A stretch of DNA of 64,000 nt, from positions 329,174 through 393,173 of the forward strand of contig JASKOM010000001.1 in assembly GCA_030152305.1 (NCBI GenBank). The letters are read 5' to 3'. The stretch comes from Campylobacterota bacterium (GTDB taxonomy: Bacteria > Campylobacterota > Campylobacteria > Campylobacterales > Thiovulaceae). Below the pieces are notes generated by a model, which did no database searches, was not told where the DNA came from, and saw nothing but the letters and a program-made list of their open reading frames with translations. The number at the start of each line of letters is the position of its first letter. Position 1 is the first letter of the stretch. Made by a program: the position numbers and the translations under genes. This document shows, one piece after another, positions 21,792-28,062 of this stretch.

Positions 21792-21825
21792 TTATTTGCT
21801 AATTCAAAACAGCTTTCTAATGTTT
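21792..21825. repeat. 34-bp direct repeat, copy 1 (orphan copy of the hemD 3' end)
   Basis: ttatttgctaattcaaaacagctttctaatgttt is identical to 27404-27437. On the minus strand it reads TLESCFELANK followed by FSQN-stop. Confidence 0.9.
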
Positions 21826-21838
21826 TTTAGAAATAAAA

Positions 21839-24800
21839 TTAATAATTTTTAATAAATTCAAATTTACATAAAGTTTGTAGCCAATTACCTTCTGGACTAT
21901 TTGGATATTTAGAATCTTCTTTTATAAAATAATATATTTGAGCATCAATTTCTATCTCTGAAATATAATATGCATTATTTAATAATTTGTTTATTTCTAT
22001 TTCGAATTTACCAGATAAATATGCTATTAGTTTGTTGTTATATAATAAAGAATTCCCAACAAGTTGTAATTTAGAACCTGCAAAAATCTTATTGTTTATA
22101 ATTGTAGTTTGGAATTTATGACTATGTCCTAAGTTAATACTGTTTAATCCCATATATAAAATCTTTTTCTTTGGTTCTGGACAACTTGATTGATGAGGTG
22201 AGACAAAATCATATTTCAAATTTATAAATAAAGAATCTTCAAAATTTGAAATAATTGTTAAACCTTTTTTAGCTCGAGTCATGGCTACATAATATTTTCT
22301 TCTGATTGAATCTGTATTATATTCGTTTGGTTTGATGATTGAAGCTTTGTGTTCCATTACAACTACATAATCAAATTCCCTACCTTTTGATTTATGAATT
22401 GTTGTGATAATTATTTTATGATTATTATGATTTTTATCAAAAAAATTATCATCAAGTTCATTAACAAAATTATTAAATAAGCTATAACTATATTCATTGT
22501 CAATAATAATATTTTCAAATTCTTCAATAACTTGTTTTAATTTATCAATATTTTTTGAATTTTCAAACATTTGAAAAATAGAATCTTTAGCTTTAATAAA
22601 TGTTTCTTTTGTAACTATTTGTTCATTATGTAAAATTTCCATAAATGTGTATATTTCGAGTAAATTACTCCATTCAAATCGTGGTCTATCTTGAATTAAA
22701 TGAGATTTTATTTGATGATTTGTTAAAAGAGATTGCATTGTTAAAGCTTCATCATTTGTGTTTGTTAATATAGCTATTGTTGATTCTGTATGATTTGAAA
22801 TAATTGATGAAACTTCTTGACGAACATCTGCATATAAATAAGAACATTCATCTGAAGGACTAAAAATTAATTTTGTAAAAGATTCGATTTTAGATATTTT
22901 ATCTTTTGAAACTTTTGCAGGAACTTTTAATTTTTCTGATTTTTTTCTTGTTGTAATAAAAGAAGCAAATTTATTAGCAAATTCAATTATTTTTTTAGAA
23001 CTTCTGTAATTTTCAATTAGTTCATAATTTATTTTATGTTTATTATCGTTAAGATTAAAATCTTGCCAAAAATCATCAAAAAATTTAACATTGGCTCCAG
23101 CAAAATCTAATATTAGCTGATCATCATCACCAACTGCTACAATTTTTTTAATATTTTGATATTTAACAAGATTATAAATTAAATCAAAAGCATCTTGAGA
23201 AATATCTTGAAATTCATCAAGATATAAAGCTGTGATCGGTTTTATATGTTCTTGATATTGTTGAAATTTTTGATTGAAATTTTTCAAATACAGATTTTGA
23301 ATATTTGACTCATTTTTTAATTCTTCGCCAGTTATTTTGCCAACAAAACTATGAAATGTATGAATGTCAAGATTATATGCAATTTGTCCGCCAAGCATTT
23401 TTACAAGTCGGCTTTTAAATTCATTAACTGCTGTTCTTGTGTAAGTTAACATTAAGAAATTTTCTGGTTTAACTGAAGGATCATTTTTAATAGTATGTGC
23501 TATTTTTTGAACAAGTGTATGAGTTTTTCCACTTCCAGGACCAGCTAAAACTAAAATAGAATTATCTTTACTTGTCATAATTCGTCGTTGTTCATCACTT
23601 AAATCTTTACCAAATTGACTATCTTTTGTTTGAAAATTAACAAATAATTCTTTTAAATAACTAAAATATTTATCAATAAATTCTGAAATATCCATTTTAA
23701 AATATTCAGACAATAAATTTTCTTGTTTATTAATGCTATTTTTTTCTAACATGGTTTGAAGATATTCATTCATGATATGAGTTCTTTTTCTTCGATATTC
23801 ATAATATTCATGTTTTTCTGATAAATAATCTTTTTTTAAATATTCACGATTGACTTGATTTTGTATTTCAATTTGAAATTTTTGTTTTATTGGTGAGATA
23901 ACATCAAGTAATTTAATAGCTCCAACATCTTGAAGAAGTAACAAAAAATATTCTATTGACAAATCATTAATTAAATCGAATTTGCTTTTTAAAAAAATAA
24001 TATCAATATATTTTTTATCTTTAATTTCTTCAAAAATCTCTTTGGCTATTTTGATTTTTATATGAATTCGTTCTTTAAATTCATTAAAATTTGTTGCTTC
24101 AAAAGTCCAAACAGAATATTGTTTATTTTTTCGTTTAATCGTTATAGAATTATTTTTATGAGTTTCAATCCAATCTAATAAAATAGCTTCTAAAATATTA
24201 AGAAACTTTCTTTTATCTTTAAGTTCATTAGAACTATTTACAAAATCTTTTAATCTTAATTCGCTATTTTTTTCAGCATAATTTAAAAGTTTTTCTTCTA
24301 TGTCAAAATAATATGAATGAAATTCAAGTAATTCAATTCGTGTGGTATTAAAACCAGAAATTAAATTTAACTCATATAATTTTATAAAAGCTTGATTAAT
24401 ATCATTGATTGCAAAATCAAGTGAATCATACATATTTTCTGGTTTGCCATTTTGGAGATATTTAATAACAGCAATTGCGATTTTGTCATTACCAAGAACA
24501 TCTTTTGATTCAGAGATAGTAGCCGTTGAAAAAGATTCTCCAATTGATTTAACAAGATTTGTATTTCGTTTGATTAATTTAACTCTTTCGAGTTCAGACA
24601 AAATTGTGTTAATTTTTAATTCTTGAATTTCAAATTTCTTTTGTGTTTGTATTTCCCATTTTGCCTCTTTGAGAATTTCTCTAGTTGAAGCAATAACTTG
24701 ATTATTATAAGCCAATAATTTTATAGCTTTATAAATTTGCTCAATTTCTTCAAAAGTATCAATTGATTTTTTTAATCTTGATAAATTAAAATCTAAGTCA

Positions 24801-26764
24801 TCATATTTATAAAAAGTAATTGATTGTGAAAGTTGACCGTCCCTCCCAGCTCGTCCAGATTCTTGTAAAAAATCTTCTATATTGCTTGACGGTTTATAAT
24901 GAATAACTGTTCTAATATTGGGCTTATCAATTCCCATTCCAAAAGCTGAAGTTGAAACAATCACATCAATATTATTAGCTATAAATTCACTTGAAATAGT
25001 TTCTCTGTTTTTAACTTTTGAATGAAAAGGTTTAATAATAAGATCTGTAAAATCTTTTTGAAGTTCTTTTGATATTTCGTTACATGCTGAAATACTATTT
25101 GTTATATAAATTACTGCTGGAAGATTTTTTTTATCTTTTAAAATTTCAATAGCTTTTGAATATCTTTCTTGATCGTTTTTTACATCGATAACAGAATAAT
25201 TTATATTACTTCGTTTATTTATTGCCAAATATTCATCAAAATTAGCTAAATCTTTAAAAAAATTTCTCAAATCATTTAAAATATATTTAGTTGCAGTTGC
25301 TGTAAAACAAGAAATCGGTGGTTTATAATCTAAATATTCTTTAAAGAATGTTGAGATATATCTATAATCTGGACGAAAATCTTTACCCCAAGTTGAAATA
25401 ATATGAGCTTCATCTAAAACAATTCTCGAAATATATCTTTCGTCTAATATATTTCTAATAGTTTTATATCTTAACGATTCAGGAGCTATATATAAAAGAT
25501 CGATTTTACCGTCATTAACATCTTGAATAACTTTATTTTTTTCTATTGAAGTTAAATAGCTACTTAACGATCCTGCTTTAATATTTATAAATTTTTTATT
25601 AAAACTATCGACTTGATCTTTCATTAATGCTCTAAGAGGAGAAATAATAATAGTTAAACCTTTAAAAGTTTCAGCATCATAAATTGCTGGTATTTGATAA
25701 CAAATACTTTTTCCTCCGCCAGTTGGTAAAACCGCTAAAACATCTTTTTGCTCAATACAAGCTTGAATAATATTTAATTGTGAAATATTACTTTTTCCAA
25801 TTTCTAAATTTTGAAATTCTTTAAAATTAAATTTTTGATCTGACAAATGATCTCGTGCAAAATTTAAAATATTTATTTGTTTATTAAACATAGTTTTTAT
25901 TTTTGGAAAATTCTTGAAAGTATAATTTGCTGGTCTATAATTAAAATATCTTGAAAATAAAAGTAACATTATTTCAATTGGAATTTCTTCAATTTGTGAT
26001 TCTTGAATTTCTGGAATATATTTATTAATTGTTGTTAATGCAATTTGATGATATAAATCATATTGTGTTAATCCAATATATTCTATAAAAGTTTGATAAT
26101 ATGGGCTATTATGTGCAAGATACGAAAAACTTTTTTTTATGTCTATTGGTAATTCTCTAAAAATTTCTAACTCATCTTGAAATAAATAAAAACTTTCTTC
26201 AGAATCTTTAATAGGATCGTTTTTATCGTTCTCACTATTTTTATAATATTTTTCTAACTTATGATTTTGTAAATCTCTTAAAATAATTGAAAGGTAAAGA
26301 GTATCTATATATTTTTGATTTTTAGCGAAATTACATTGTTCTTCTAATATTATTTTGTCATAATTTATAATATTATGTCCTGCTAAAATATTTGCATTTA
26401 AATAATTTTGAAATTCATTAAAAGATAATGAAATATTGCTTGGAAAAACACCTATTTTTCTTTCGTCAATATCAATAAATAATAAATTCGTTTCAAAGTA
26501 AATTAAATTTTTAATAAATTTATTAAGTTCTAATTCTGACTCTAATCCAAACATTTCACAATTTAAGCAATCAATAATTAACTCATTATTTATTAAAAAT
26601 TCTACATTCCAATCTTTTTCAAACTGAAAATATTTATTTTGTTTTAAAACCTCTAATTCAAAGAAATTTATATTTAATTTTATCTTCATCAACCACCAAA
26701 CTTTTCTCGATATTTCGATATTATAATAAAAAATAGGAAGTTTGATTATGTTTGAATCGATCAC
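21839..26764 (-). CDS. giant fusion protein: DEDD-like 3'-5' exonuclease domain + RecQ-family helicase core + UvrD/PcrA-family helicase core + unassigned C-terminal domain
   Basis: 1641 aa.
- Exonuclease-like: FIDIDE (aa 96-101), GHNIINYD (129-136).
- RecQ: LPTGGGKS (346-353), DEAH (451-454), FTATAT, SGRAGRDG (636-643).
- UvrD: AGPGSGKT (1074-1081), DEFQD (1183-1187), GDDDQ (1212-1216), NYRS (1252-1255), TIHKSKGREFD (1455-1465), YVAMTRAK (1492-1499).
The start is uncertain (Met1 at 26764 or Met26 at 26689). Confidence 0.8.
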   Translation of the reverse strand: MIDSNIIKLPIFYYNIEISRKVWWLMKIKLNINFFELEVLKQNKYFQFEKDWNVEFLINNELIIDCLNCEMFGLESELELNKFIKNLIYFETNLLFIDIDERKIGVFPSNISLSFNEFQNYLNANILAGHNIINYDKIILEEQCNFAKNQKYIDTLYLSIILRDLQNHKLEKYYKNSENDKNDPIKDSEESFYLFQDELEIFRELPIDIKKSFSYLAHNSPYYQTFIEYIGLTQYDLYHQIALTTINKYIPEIQESQIEEIPIEIMLLLFSRYFNYRPANYTFKNFPKIKTMFNKQINILNFARDHLSDQKFNFKEFQNLEIGKSNISQLNIIQACIEQKDVLAVLPTGGGKSICYQIPAIYDAETFKGLTIIISPLRALMKDQVDSFNKKFINIKAGSLSSYLTSIEKNKVIQDVNDGKIDLLYIAPESLRYKTIRNILDERYISRIVLDEAHIISTWGKDFRPDYRYISTFFKEYLDYKPPISCFTATATKYILNDLRNFFKDLANFDEYLAINKRSNINYSVIDVKNDQERYSKAIEILKDKKNLPAVIYITNSISACNEISKELQKDFTDLIIKPFHSKVKNRETISSEFIANNIDVIVSTSAFGMGIDKPNIRTVIHYKPSSNIEDFLQESGRAGRDGQLSQSITFYKYDDLDFNLSRLKKSIDTFEEIEQIYKAIKLLAYNNQVIASTREILKEAKWEIQTQKKFEIQELKINTILSELERVKLIKRNTNLVKSIGESFSTATISESKDVLGNDKIAIAVIKYLQNGKPENMYDSLDFAINDINQAFIKLYELNLISGFNTTRIELLEFHSYYFDIEEKLLNYAEKNSELRLKDFVNSSNELKDKRKFLNILEAILLDWIETHKNNSITIKRKNKQYSVWTFEATNFNEFKERIHIKIKIAKEIFEEIKDKKYIDIIFLKSKFDLINDLSIEYFLLLLQDVGAIKLLDVISPIKQKFQIEIQNQVNREYLKKDYLSEKHEYYEYRRKRTHIMNEYLQTMLEKNSINKQENLLSEYFKMDISEFIDKYFSYLKELFVNFQTKDSQFGKDLSDEQRRIMTSKDNSILVLAGPGSGKTHTLVQKIAHTIKNDPSVKPENFLMLTYTRTAVNEFKSRLVKMLGGQIAYNLDIHTFHSFVGKITGEELKNESNIQNLYLKNFNQKFQQYQEHIKPITALYLDEFQDISQDAFDLIYNLVKYQNIKKIVAVGDDDQLILDFAGANVKFFDDFWQDFNLNDNKHKINYELIENYRSSKKIIEFANKFASFITTRKKSEKLKVPAKVSKDKISKIESFTKLIFSPSDECSYLYADVRQEVSSIISNHTESTIAILTNTNDEALTMQSLLTNHQIKSHLIQDRPRFEWSNLLEIYTFMEILHNEQIVTKETFIKAKDSIFQMFENSKNIDKLKQVIEEFENIIIDNEYSYSLFNNFVNELDDNFFDKNHNNHKIIITTIHKSKGREFDYVVVMEHKASIIKPNEYNTDSIRRKYYVAMTRAKKGLTIISNFEDSLFINLKYDFVSPHQSSCPEPKKKILYMGLNSINLGHSHKFQTTIINNKIFAGSKLQLVGNSLLYNNKLIAYLSGKFEIEINKLLNNAYYISEIEIDAQIYYFIKEDSKYPNSPEGNWLQTLCKFEFIKNY

Positions 26765-27389
26765 ATTAATATTTATTATATTTTTATCTTTTACTTTATA
26801 TAAAAAAATAAAAGAGTTAAATCAAGTTAAAGAACTATCATTAAAATTACATAAGTCTTTCAATTTCAATAATGAGCTTTTAAGATTAAATGTTGATTTA
26901 AAAGAATTGGAGCAAAATTTGAAAAATAAACATGAAGAAAAAAATTATTTAATATCACAAATTGAACAAGAGCAAATTATTACTGAAAATTTACAAACAA
27001 AACTTAATGAAGAAAATTTAATTAATGCTTCTTTGCAACTTGAAATTCAAAAATTACAAGAACAAAATTCTAAGTTTTTCAATGAATTAACTCAAAATCA
27101 ACAAACATTTTTGTTAAACAGAACCGCAAATTCTCAAGTTTATCAATTACAAAAAGAGAACAATAAACTTAAACAAGAAAATTTATTTTTGATAAATAAT
27201 AGTAATCAAATATTACTTGATAAAAATAACGAATTATCTTTAAAAATCAATGAATTGAATATAAAAATAGAAGAATTAGAAAACGACTTGAAAAAATATA
27301 AAGAACAAAGAAACATAAACATATCGAATAAACTTGATATTCTTGATGTTGAGCAAGACGAAGATGAATATGAAAATTCAGAAGAATAA
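26742..27389 (+). CDS. membrane-anchored coiled-coil protein, hypothetical
   Basis: 215 aa. N-terminal TM helix (ITLIFIIFLSFTLY), a long Q/N/E/L/K heptad-like region and an acidic tail (DVEQDEDEYENSEE). The likely start is ATG 26748 (AGGAAG 26735-26740). It is divergent from the helicase gene and overlaps that gene's longest ORF. Confidence 0.6.
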   Translation: MIMFESITLIFIIFLSFTLYKKIKELNQVKELSLKLHKSFNFNNELLRLNVDLKELEQNLKNKHEEKNYLISQIEQEQIITENLQTKLNEENLINASLQLEIQKLQEQNSKFFNELTQNQQTFLLNRTANSQVYQLQKENNKLKQENLFLINNSNQILLDKNNELSLKINELNIKIEELENDLKKYKEQRNINISNKLDILDVEQDEDEYENSEE

Positions 27390-27393
27390 AAAC

Positions 27394-28062
27394 TTAATTT
27401 ATTTTATTTGCTAATTCAAAACAGCTTTCTAATGTTTGTTCTTGAGAAATATATTTATTATATTTTTCTGGAATTGCTTTAAAAGTCGTTTTGCCAATCG
27501 TTATAAAAATAAAATTATTTGAAATTTCGATTTGATTTATTTGCAAATATTTTAAAAAACAGTTAAAAATTGAAGGTGATGAAATTATAAAAATATGCTT
27601 TTGATTTATTAAAAAGTTTATTTTTGTGTGAGATAAATTGCAAACTGTTTTATATAAAATTAATTCGATGAGGTCAATATTTGCTTTTTTTAATATTTCA
27701 CCAATATTCGATTCTACTTTTTCAGGTCGAACATAAAGCATTTTGATATTTTTAAAATTTTTTAAAATTTCATTTGCAAAATTATCACCGTGAGAATCGA
27801 CGGCTTCAAATATTAATTTTCCACCTAATTTTTTTATTGTTTCTCCCGTTTTTTTGCCAATTGCAACAGAATCTATTTTTTGCCAATCCATCCAAAAATT
27901 ATTTAAATAATTAACAGCTTTTGCAGAAGTAAAAATAATTAAATTTATATTTTCGTTTTGAATTTGAGAAATTTTTTGTGATAGATTTTCGATAAGAACC
28001 GTCTGAATCATCGGAATATTAACAACTCCTTTGATTTCAGTCGGTGATAAATTATATATCAA
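27394..28062 (-). CDS. hemD: uroporphyrinogen-III synthase
   Basis: 222 aa with a TTG start. The HEM4-like layout (IIFTSAKAVNYL...AIGKKTGETIKKLGG...LILYKT...IGKTT) was recognised by pattern only. Confidence 0.55.
   Translation of the reverse strand: MIYNLSPTEIKGVVNIPMIQTVLIENLSQKISQIQNENINLIIFTSAKAVNYLNNFWMDWQKIDSVAIGKKTGETIKKLGGKLIFEAVDSHGDNFANEILKNFKNIKMLYVRPEKVESNIGEILKKANIDLIELILYKTVCNLSHTKINFLINQKHIFIISSPSIFNCFLKYLQINQIEISNNFIFITIGKTTFKAIPEKYNKYISQEQTLESCFELANKIN
27404..27437. repeat. 34-bp direct repeat, copy 2 (functional 3' end of hemD)
   Basis: Identical to 21792-21825. It encodes TLESCFELANK followed by IN-stop of the intact hemD ORF. Confidence 0.9.

Follow-up and report, generated by a model that had tools for sequence, protein, structure and literature searches.

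The 64-kb window analysed here, i.e. the whole stretch of 64,000 nucleotides (nt) from contig JASKOM010000001.1 of a Campylobacterota bacterium, contains a minus-strand gene encoding a single polypeptide in which a DEDD-like putative 3'-5' exonuclease domain, a RecQ-family helicase core of superfamily 2 (SF2) and a UvrD-type helicase core of superfamily 1A (SF1A) are joined. The gene belongs to a large family that moves between unrelated genomic contexts. We tentatively consider its product to be a stand-alone mobile helicase-nuclease, most likely acting in defence against mobile elements or in surveillance of foreign or aberrantly replicating DNA (rough probability 0.45). The open reading frame (ORF), its probable start and the domains of the product (in amino acids, aa) are as follows.

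21839..26764, minus strand: exonuclease-RecQ-UvrD fusion ORF, uninterrupted, 1641 codons from GTG 26764, stop codon at 21839-21841
26689, minus strand: ATG, probable true start of the fusion gene (M26 in the 1641-aa numbering), product of 1616 aa
26120..26512, minus strand: DEDD-like (RNase H-fold) putative 3'-5' exonuclease domain, aa ~85-215; Exo I D98-I-D100, Exo II G129-H-N...D136, IDTL at D154, Exo III-like N182-x-P184-x-x-D187
25865..26119, minus strand: conserved helical domain between the exonuclease and the RecQ core, aa ~216-300
24785..25864, minus strand: RecQ-family SF2 helicase core, aa ~301-660; PTGGGK 347-352 (Walker A), DEAH 451-454, F-x-AT 487-490, Q634...GR-x-x-R 637-641 (motif VI)
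23630..24784, minus strand: linker of tandem winged-helix domains and a helical connector HIM-x-EY...DYF, aa ~661-1045
22235..23629, minus strand: UvrD/PcrA/Rep-type SF1A helicase core, aa ~1046-1510, all motifs invariant; A-x-PGSGKT 1074-1081, DE-x-QD 1183-1187, GDDDQ 1212-1216, N-x-R 1252-1254, T-x-HK-x-KG 1455-1461, YV-x-x-TR 1492-1497
21842..22234, minus strand: C-terminal alpha/beta domain with long beta-hairpins, aa ~1511-1641

Domains of the fusion protein

All residue positions are given in the 1641-aa numbering, counted from GTG 26764. The domain order is DEDD-like exonuclease, helical domain, RecQ core, tandem winged-helix domains, UvrD core and C-terminal domain. An earlier note on this DNA had described three nucleic-acid-processing modules within one frame of 1641 codons. 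Both the single frame and the three modules are retained here, the nuclease being the weakest of the three, as it is predicted from motifs and a structural model. The motifs quoted in the note were all found at the residues it gave, and most of them are invariant among 25 homologues. The strand has to be corrected to minus: the plus strand across 21839-26764 is packed with stop codons. The start also probably needs to be moved. ATG 26689 is favoured, since it has a Shine-Dalgarno-like GGTGG 6-10 nt upstream, with nothing comparable upstream of GTG 26764, since the database protein P0001, which is 100% identical to the fusion protein, has 1616 aa, and since the alignment of close homologues begins at M26. 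The identical protein has been assembled independently in two sources.

The RecQ core is matched by the Pfam domains DEAD (aa 329-493, 112.8 bits) and Helicase_C (aa 536-643, 74.1 bits), both above the curated cut-offs. The NCBIfam model TIGR00614 (recQ_fam) assigns it to the RecQ family, with 273.5 bits against a cut-off of 219.8 over aa 327-707. The score is below the NCBIfam equivalog level (300.3 vs 640.2 bits for TIGR01389, 234 vs 1015 bits for NF008279). No Pfam match to RecQ_Zn_bind, RQC or HRDC was observed in the fusion protein at E<=0.1, and cysteines are absent after motif VI in the window protein. In the Protein Data Bank (PDB) the core matches those of RecQ, BLM, RECQ1, RECQ5 and WRN at E from 1e-50 to 1e-34.

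The UvrD core is matched by Pfam UvrD-helicase from aa 1055 (99.3 bits vs a cut-off of 23), by UvrD_C up to aa 1506 (72.1 vs 25.6 bits) and, also above the curated cut-off, by AAA_19. It is below every equivalog cut-off: 140 vs 911 bits for PcrA, 110 vs 543 bits for helicase IV, and likewise for UvrD and Rep. The nearest PDB structures include PcrA (1PJR, E=2e-26) and Rep. In an alignment of 25 diverse full-length homologues the ATPase/helicase motifs of both cores are invariant, and therefore both motors appear to be under selection. The Pfam and NCBIfam scores bear out the claim of two independent helicase cores.

The N-terminal domain is predicted to be a very divergent DEDD-like domain of the RNase H fold that has kept a candidate metal-binding tetrad and has Asn in place of His or Tyr. 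Exo I has the form DxE in at least 63 of 74 homologues, the window's clade having D-I-D. Exo II (HN....D) is found in all 74, two further ORFs giving no match in the scan, and the Exo III-like N-x-P-x-x-D has its Asn in 69 of the 74. The IDTL motif (D154), N-terminal to the Exo III-like motif, is invariant in the homologue alignment. The acidic residues D98, D100 (Glu in most homologues), D136 and D187 occur in the canonical DEDD order family-wide. Thus, of the DnaQ-like segment proposed in the note, Exo I and Exo II are conserved, and the third motif, which it could not place, corresponds to N182-x-P184-x-x-D187; the nuclease assignment itself stays below profile thresholds.

In the AlphaFold2 (AF2) model this domain has a mean predicted local distance difference test score (pLDDT) of 85 and the order b1-b2-b3-aA-b4-aB-b5-aC...a(ExoIII), which is that of DnaQ-type exonucleases, followed by a helical bundle. 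In the model, strand 1, the beginning of helix B and the Exo III helix carry the acidic residues. Of 17 homologous N-terminal domains, only 2 are matched by RNase H-like or exonuclease Pfam domains, PF18136 and PF13482 being sub-threshold, and PF01612 (RNase D type) gave no match in the fusion protein or these domains. A PDB profile search returned small DEDD-type exonucleases at a weak E=0.03. The best Foldseek match is the exonuclease region of E. coli Pol II with probability 0.99, but with E=0.19 and a template-modelling (TM) score of 0.36; NrnC, oligoribonuclease and integrase cores follow. As profile support is sub-threshold, the label "DEDD-like" is based on the motifs and the predicted topology. 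The adjacent helical domain, modelled as helices by AF2, contains the conserved blocks LL..YF.GFF.Y and ELAYILA and runs into the motif-0 region of the RecQ core.

The region between the two cores had been described as a helical linker of ~400 aa. The length is confirmed; the contents are predicted to be tandem winged-helix domains, in view of repeated weak matches to MarR, TrmB, HTH_36, Crp and RPA_C in 5-6 of 48 members and a weak match to MarR in PDB (E=0.026). Positions L725, R733, N736, Y980, Y988, H996, Y1021 and F1022 are invariant in the homologue alignment, and the conserved connector HIM-x-EY...DYF sits just N-terminal to the UvrD core.

The C-terminal ~130 aa, thought to be beta-rich and unlike known domains, are modelled with pLDDT 84 as an alpha/beta fold with hairpins, and neither PDB nor BFVD offers a convincing relative. 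No PDB sequence-profile match was found for this domain. The best Foldseek match in PDB, uL22, has E=0.02 and TM 0.29 and is not meaningful. The viral models of BFVD give a weak match to DUF4236 and another, at E=0.11, to a HIRAN-domain protein; a HIRAN-like 3'-end binder is an attractive lead that found no support.

Family and mobility

An initial search yielded over 100 proteins of ~1600 aa that share this Pfam domain set, from Arcobacter, Aliarcobacter, Sulfurovum, Lebetimonas, Hydrogenimonas, Thiovulum and Prevotella. The databases name such homologues at most "RecQ family ATP-dependent DNA helicase". A scan with a family-specific segment found relatives in at least 449 species-representative genomes. 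The best 80 of these come from Campylobacterota, Bacteroidota, Clostridia, Mollicutes-like bacteria, Nitrospinota, Kiritimatiellia, Lentisphaerae, Gammaproteobacteria and metagenome-assembled genomes (MAGs) of the Desulfobacterota type. The ORF has at least 1400 aa at 76 of the 88 loci examined, with shortened ORFs at a few; RecQ motif VI is present in all but one outlier ORF, and the UvrD Walker A motif follows ~490 aa on in nearly all. A profile of the N-terminal domain matched 918 clusters (50% identity) at E<=1e-10. Since the best 150 are all ~1600 aa long or fragments, the domain is confined to the fusion architecture among the best matches.

Full-text literature searches brought up no account of a RecQ-UvrD or exonuclease-RecQ-UvrD fusion. 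The novelty lies in the specific architecture and in its recognition as a large, mobile, uncharacterised family; the sequences and the parts were already known. The fusion is thus not a unique invention, as might have been supposed, but one member of a large existing family annotated as RecQ family helicases.

The gene moves as a single unit. Between related species (four Flavobacterium, three Chitinophagaceae or Bacteroidetes, and other groups), nucleotide identity of 70-96% is restricted to the gene and ~60-180 bp. No homology was observed within 7-9 kb on either side, with the exception of a Parapedobacter pair whose flanks share rearranged segments. Full-length copies were found on plasmids of Aliarcobacter, Bacteroides and Phocaeicola. 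Among 2.9 million IMG/VR contigs, ~16 have the gene, near integrases, invertases, ParB, methyltransferases and repressors. GenBank phages contain no full fusion, only matches of RecQ-core length. The family is therefore not a core gene at a fixed locus, whereas a fixed core locus would have spoken against the earlier note: it consists of solo cassettes in unrelated contexts, including plasmids and prophage-like contigs.

In 19 of 75 cases the phylum label of the nearest sampled relative is a different one. Once three cases that depend only on "?" or unknown labels are discounted, ~16 remain, some of which may reflect MAG contamination. Four copies from MAGs assigned to Deltaproteobacteria, Actinomycetes and Lentisphaerae (loci L021, L046, L059 and L074) are 70-83% identical to Bacteroidota copies, a sign either of recent transfer between phyla or of contaminated MAG bins.

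In the window the gene lies on a horizontally acquired, repeat-bounded islet, as the note had proposed. The elements of this locus are:

21826..27403: inserted islet of ~5.6 kb, containing the fusion gene and one divergent 215-aa ORF only
21792..21825: left copy of an exact 34-nt direct repeat, a duplicate of the last 11 hemD codons (TLESCFELANK)
27404..27437: right copy of the repeat, inside the 3' end of the intact hemD
27394-28062, minus strand: hemD, intact, matching PDB 3P9Z at E=7e-13
26742..27389, plus strand: 215-aa ORF, the second islet gene, divergent from the fusion gene and also called on the twin contig

The GC content of the islet is 22.5%, compared to 28.6% +/- 1.3% in all other equal-sized windows, the lowest of the 64 kb. 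The left repeat copy begins 13 nt beyond the stop codon of the fusion gene. The 34-nt sequence has two matches in the window, with none expected by chance, and its duplication marks an insertion into the 3' end of hemD by which this gene was left intact. The 64 kb contain neither a tRNA gene nor a match to any Rfam family at gathering score; the insertion target was the 3' end of a protein gene rather than a tRNA gene. The islet contains no recombinase, integrase, relaxase or replication gene. Flanking repeats are not a family-wide feature: at 62 loci their mean length is 9.5 nt (maximum 13), compared to 9.0 (maximum 13) in shifted controls. The 34-nt repeat is specific to the window insertion.

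On one side the islet is flanked by amt-glnB and on the other by hemD-jag-yidC-yidD, where jag, yidC and yidD are presumed from their translations. The bacterium is a relative of Thiovulum within the Campylobacterota: its Amt shares 77% identity with the Thiovulum sp. ES protein, and the partial fusion homologue of this strain is 54% identical. No empty site was found: Thiovulum sp. ES and a MAG with a 77% identical Amt do not have the hemD-amt arrangement, and exact-pattern scans of metagenome contigs returned nothing. In Thiovulum sp. ES the partial homologue (P0003) and amt-glnB (L095) are on different contigs, and Bro-N, HTH and ZorA-like genes stand upstream of amt in place of hemD. The amt neighbourhood is thus variable in the Thiovulum lineage.

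The 215-aa ORF, with many Glu, Lys, Asn and Gln residues, looks like a coiled coil by eye. Neither Pfam nor PADLOC matches it; it was not found beside other family members and is unrelated to the small ORF adjoining the A. cibarius homologue.

Possible function

A defence role is suggested by genomic association. As the gene is mobile and occurs beside defence genes, its candidate target is foreign or aberrantly replicating DNA. PADLOC and Pfam were applied to 238 genes at positions +/-1 and +/-2 of ~70 loci (E<=1e-10). Defence neighbours were SoFic (4), type I restriction-modification (3), MADS mad3 (2), AbiEii, HamB, PD-T4-2 and HNH, as well as the PADLOC candidates PDC-S04, S05, S23, S24, S41 (SLFN-type helicases) and M62; one McrBC neighbour was identified by Pfam only. 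None of the 10 ordinary window genes matches PADLOC. An enrichment of homologues near defence genes is suggested by this recurrent association, the comparison being with these ten genes only. Clustering of neighbours at 76 loci revealed no conserved partner gene, the largest cluster, SoFic-like, comprising 4 loci.

In Lebetimonas sp. JH369 (L002, 6980-14962) the gene is in an integrase/toxin-antitoxin island, 19 bp after PDC-M62A (689 aa, AAA_21) and PDC-M62B (311 aa) on the same strand. A PDC-M62A-type neighbour was also observed at a second locus. The gene may thus be recurrently associated with the PDC-M62 candidate system. In Arcobacter sp. 15-2 (L012, 1782-14821) genes for SbcD, SbcC, an ORF6N-domain protein, HamA and HamB precede the fusion gene. 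These genes are arranged head-to-tail on one strand with tiny gaps, and the region looks like a compact DNA-end-processing and defence block.

If the protein is a helicase-nuclease of the proposed kind, the winged-helix array and the C-terminal domain would dock on DNA that offers a free 3' tail, a nick, a gap or a fork. The RecQ core would move 3'->5', unwinding the duplex, and the neighbouring N-terminal domain could trim the 3'-ended strand in a WRN-like manner. The SF1A motor of UvrD type, also 3'->5', would track the complementary strand or clear bound proteins such as recombinase filaments, proteins similar to the single-stranded DNA-binding protein (SSB) or end-protection proteins. Jointly the motors might turn duplex into degradable single strands without a partner protein. 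The polarity, nuclease activity, substrate choice and defence phenotype are all predicted properties of the fusion protein.

The layout is closest to known systems in parts. WRN likewise has an RNase H-fold exonuclease(-like) domain N-terminal to a RecQ core, and WRN helicase structures match at E ~1e-35. The WRN exonuclease is of the RNase D or DEDDy type, and WRN has RQC and HRDC domains. By contrast, the scaffold of the fusion protein is DnaQ-like (HN..D, IDTL), Asn stands where His/Tyr is usual, and PF01612 does not match; it has tandem winged-helix domains, and no Zn-binding, RQC or HRDC profile matches it. The second motor is absent from WRN. The resemblance is most likely convergent. 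Bacterial RecQ proteins (1OYW of E. coli, 4TMU of C. sakazakii, 4Q47 of D. radiodurans) share motifs 0, I, DEAH, III and VI at E ~1e-50. Unlike them, the fusion core is below the equivalog cut-off, does not have the Zn-finger cysteines, RQC or HRDC, is embedded in a protein of ~1600 aa and has no conserved locus.

The SF1A motif set with UvrD-helicase and UvrD_C is shared in full with UvrD, PcrA and Rep, including GajB of Gabija, and the PcrA and GajB profiles match the UvrD core at a similar level, ~140 bits. However, the fusion gene has no GajA-like OLD/TOPRIM partner or conserved neighbour, and in place of the UvrD/PcrA tail the core, joined to a RecQ core, has a novel C-terminal domain. 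In DinG of Bacillus and Staphylococcus a DEDD-type exonuclease also precedes a helicase in one bacterial polypeptide, and that of B. subtilis degrades single-stranded DNA 3'->5' (PMC12525004). DinG differs in having a single motor, an SF2 XPD-like helicase of 5'->3' polarity, and is a chromosomal stress-response gene.

Helicase and nuclease are also combined in the one- or two-gene defence systems Hachiman HamAB, Nhi, Hna, DdmDE and PsyrTA/RqlHI, which occur in variable regions and on mobile elements, and the RecQ core matches the PADLOC profile of PsyrT at E=2e-73. These systems have one motor and a PD-(D/E)xK, HNH or TOPRIM nuclease, whereas the fusion protein is DEDD-like, has two motors and no partner or antitoxin; no PD-(D/E)xK profile of Pfam matches it. 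RecBCD and AddAB, with their well-known role in degrading foreign linear DNA, similarly use two motors and a nuclease as one machine at DNA ends. RecB (SF1A) moves 3'->5' and RecD, of superfamily 1B (SF1B), moves 5'->3', so that both travel the same way along the duplex, and the nuclease is of the PD-(D/E)xK type. The RecQ and UvrD/PcrA/Rep families, on the other hand, both move 3'->5' on single-stranded DNA. The fusion protein, a single chain with a DEDD-like nuclease, thus does not belong with the bipolar machines, and the RecBCD model is inapplicable. The "motors of opposite families" of the note are of different superfamilies, SF2 and SF1A, but, from what is known of these families, not of opposite polarity.

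A stronger form of the defence reading, which we offer with more reserve, is a single-protein immune system, a "bacterial WRN plus UvrD", in which the two motors, the Asn-site exonuclease and a C-terminal domain sensing or binding DNA ends would together destroy foreign DNA, the whole being a recombinase-free one-gene cassette spread across phyla.

Several observations weigh against a defence role. There is no full-length match to any model of PADLOC-DB v2.0.0; the search for a known defence system yielded only generic helicase-core matches, to DpdF and PsyrT over aa 328-680 and to GajB over aa 1050-1510. No element for discrimination between self and non-self is evident. Many of the PADLOC neighbours belong to "PDC" candidate families that lack validation, ordinary metabolic genes make up most of the neighbourhood, and the enrichment is suggestive, being set beside ten window genes. 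Repair genes are found among the neighbours as well: Ogt with an HhH-GPD glycosylase, DNA-alkylation repair, SbcCD and nfo. The islet in the window lies among housekeeping genes with no defence gene nearby, and not in a defence island. Carriage by plasmids and prophage-like contigs also fits a role in the service of these elements. As for the nuclease, the fifth DEDD residue, His (H-x4-D) or Tyr (Y-x3-D), is absent and Asn182 occupies the H-x4-D position; since Asn replaces the general-base His/Tyr, the putative nuclease may have little or no activity or may act differently. On the N-terminal 318 aa PF18136 reaches 20.8 bits (E=2.5e-4) with a cut-off of 26.7, and hhalign of the N-domain profile with E. 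coli DnaQ (approximate sequence) aligned Exo I alone, at ~1% probability.

The strongest alternative, which we regard as possible though less likely, is an accessory genome-maintenance enzyme, a WRN-like exonuclease-RecQ combined with a UvrD/Srs2-like anti-recombinase, that spreads horizontally through its usefulness. It would process stalled or reversed forks, gaps and recombination intermediates and so help the host to survive DNA damage. Indeed, RecQ and UvrD/PcrA are the canonical helicases of repair and replication restart, and the closest structures are RecQ, BLM, RECQ1, WRN and PcrA. The layout parallels WRN, and the pairing of exonuclease and helicase parallels Bacillus DinG (PMC12525004). 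The repair-gene neighbours, the housekeeping surroundings of the window copy and the lack of a toxin-like effector, a sensor partner or an evident self/non-self device point in the same direction. On the other hand, the locus is not fixed even within a genus and homology stops at the gene borders; the distribution is patchy and crosses phyla; copies reside on plasmids and prophage-like contigs; the gene recurs beside restriction-modification, SoFic, Hachiman and other defence genes; and the accessory domains of repair-type RecQ (Zn-binding, RQC, HRDC) have no profile match.

It is less probable still that the gene is cargo serving plasmids, integrative and conjugative elements or prophages, with a role in their replication or establishment, removal of host proteins, counter-defence or exclusion of competitors. 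Such a role is consistent with the 237-kb plasmid of Aliarcobacter cibarius, where the gene adjoins parAB (parA/parB), Rep3, DnaB and TrwB, with a plasmid of Bacteroides finegoldii, where ParA/ParG and SSB genes are near it, and with ParA/ParB neighbours at 3 loci. The integrase, invertase, ParB, methyltransferase and repressor neighbours in IMG/VR and the Lebetimonas integrase/toxin-antitoxin island can be read likewise. However, at most of the 76 chromosomal loci the two genes on either side include no element marker, the window islet has no integrase, relaxase or replication gene, and the full fusion is rare in IMG/VR and absent from GenBank phages. Since defence genes are common cargo of such elements, element context does not separate this alternative from defence.

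A decaying or accidental fusion without integrated function, or an assembly or annotation artefact, as might be suspected from the split copy on pNPUN02 of Nostoc punctiforme and the few shortened ORFs, is effectively refuted by the family-wide conservation of length (76 of 88 loci) and of motif spacing, by the invariance of all catalytic motifs and by the independent assembly of the identical protein in two sources.

Helicase-nuclease fusions are a known theme. If active as predicted, this would be the first described enzyme to join an SF2 RecQ core, an SF1A UvrD core and an exonuclease in one chain and, for the study of helicase mechanism, a natural test of how two 3'->5' motors cooperate on one substrate. 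If the defence role is true, it would be a compact one-gene system against phages or plasmids; among the carriers are Bacteroidales and Clostridia of the gut and Campylobacterota of marine or vent habitats, groups whose defence repertoires are poorly explored. For annotation, hundreds of entries named "RecQ family ATP-dependent DNA helicase" would then count as a distinct accessory family and not as the housekeeping RecQ. The mobility of the gene alone, with neither flanking repeats nor a recombinase, is a further point that merits study.

Individual loci and variants

At some loci the neighbours are of mixed kind. On a 2.7-Mb metagenome contig (protein P0074) the gene stands between Ogt with the HhH-GPD glycosylase on one side and SoFic on the other. 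In a Prevotella locus it follows the DNA-alkylation repair gene, and at one locus it is alone between atpE and pyrG. In a Clostridia MAG (L088, 11989-20523) an ORF of 2845 aa is directly downstream of the fusion gene.

Some members deviate from the common architecture, the variants being located at alignment columns ~1-200 and ~418-430 (alignment A1). P0082 (2020 aa) has an extra N-terminal HAD-type domain, and P0088 and P0111 (~1745 aa) have a Cys-rich N-terminal extension. Members from Bacteroidales and Clostridia contain a C-x-x-C insert between the helical domain and the RecQ core, which the window's clade does not have.

The copy on pNPUN02 (L094, 6746-11764) is split into three adjacent ORFs and is probably frameshifted or decaying. 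These ORFs are annotated as a RecQ family helicase, a UvrD-helicase domain protein and a "3'-5' exonuclease", and the copy adjoins an ISNCY transposase and a pair of methylase and helicase genes.

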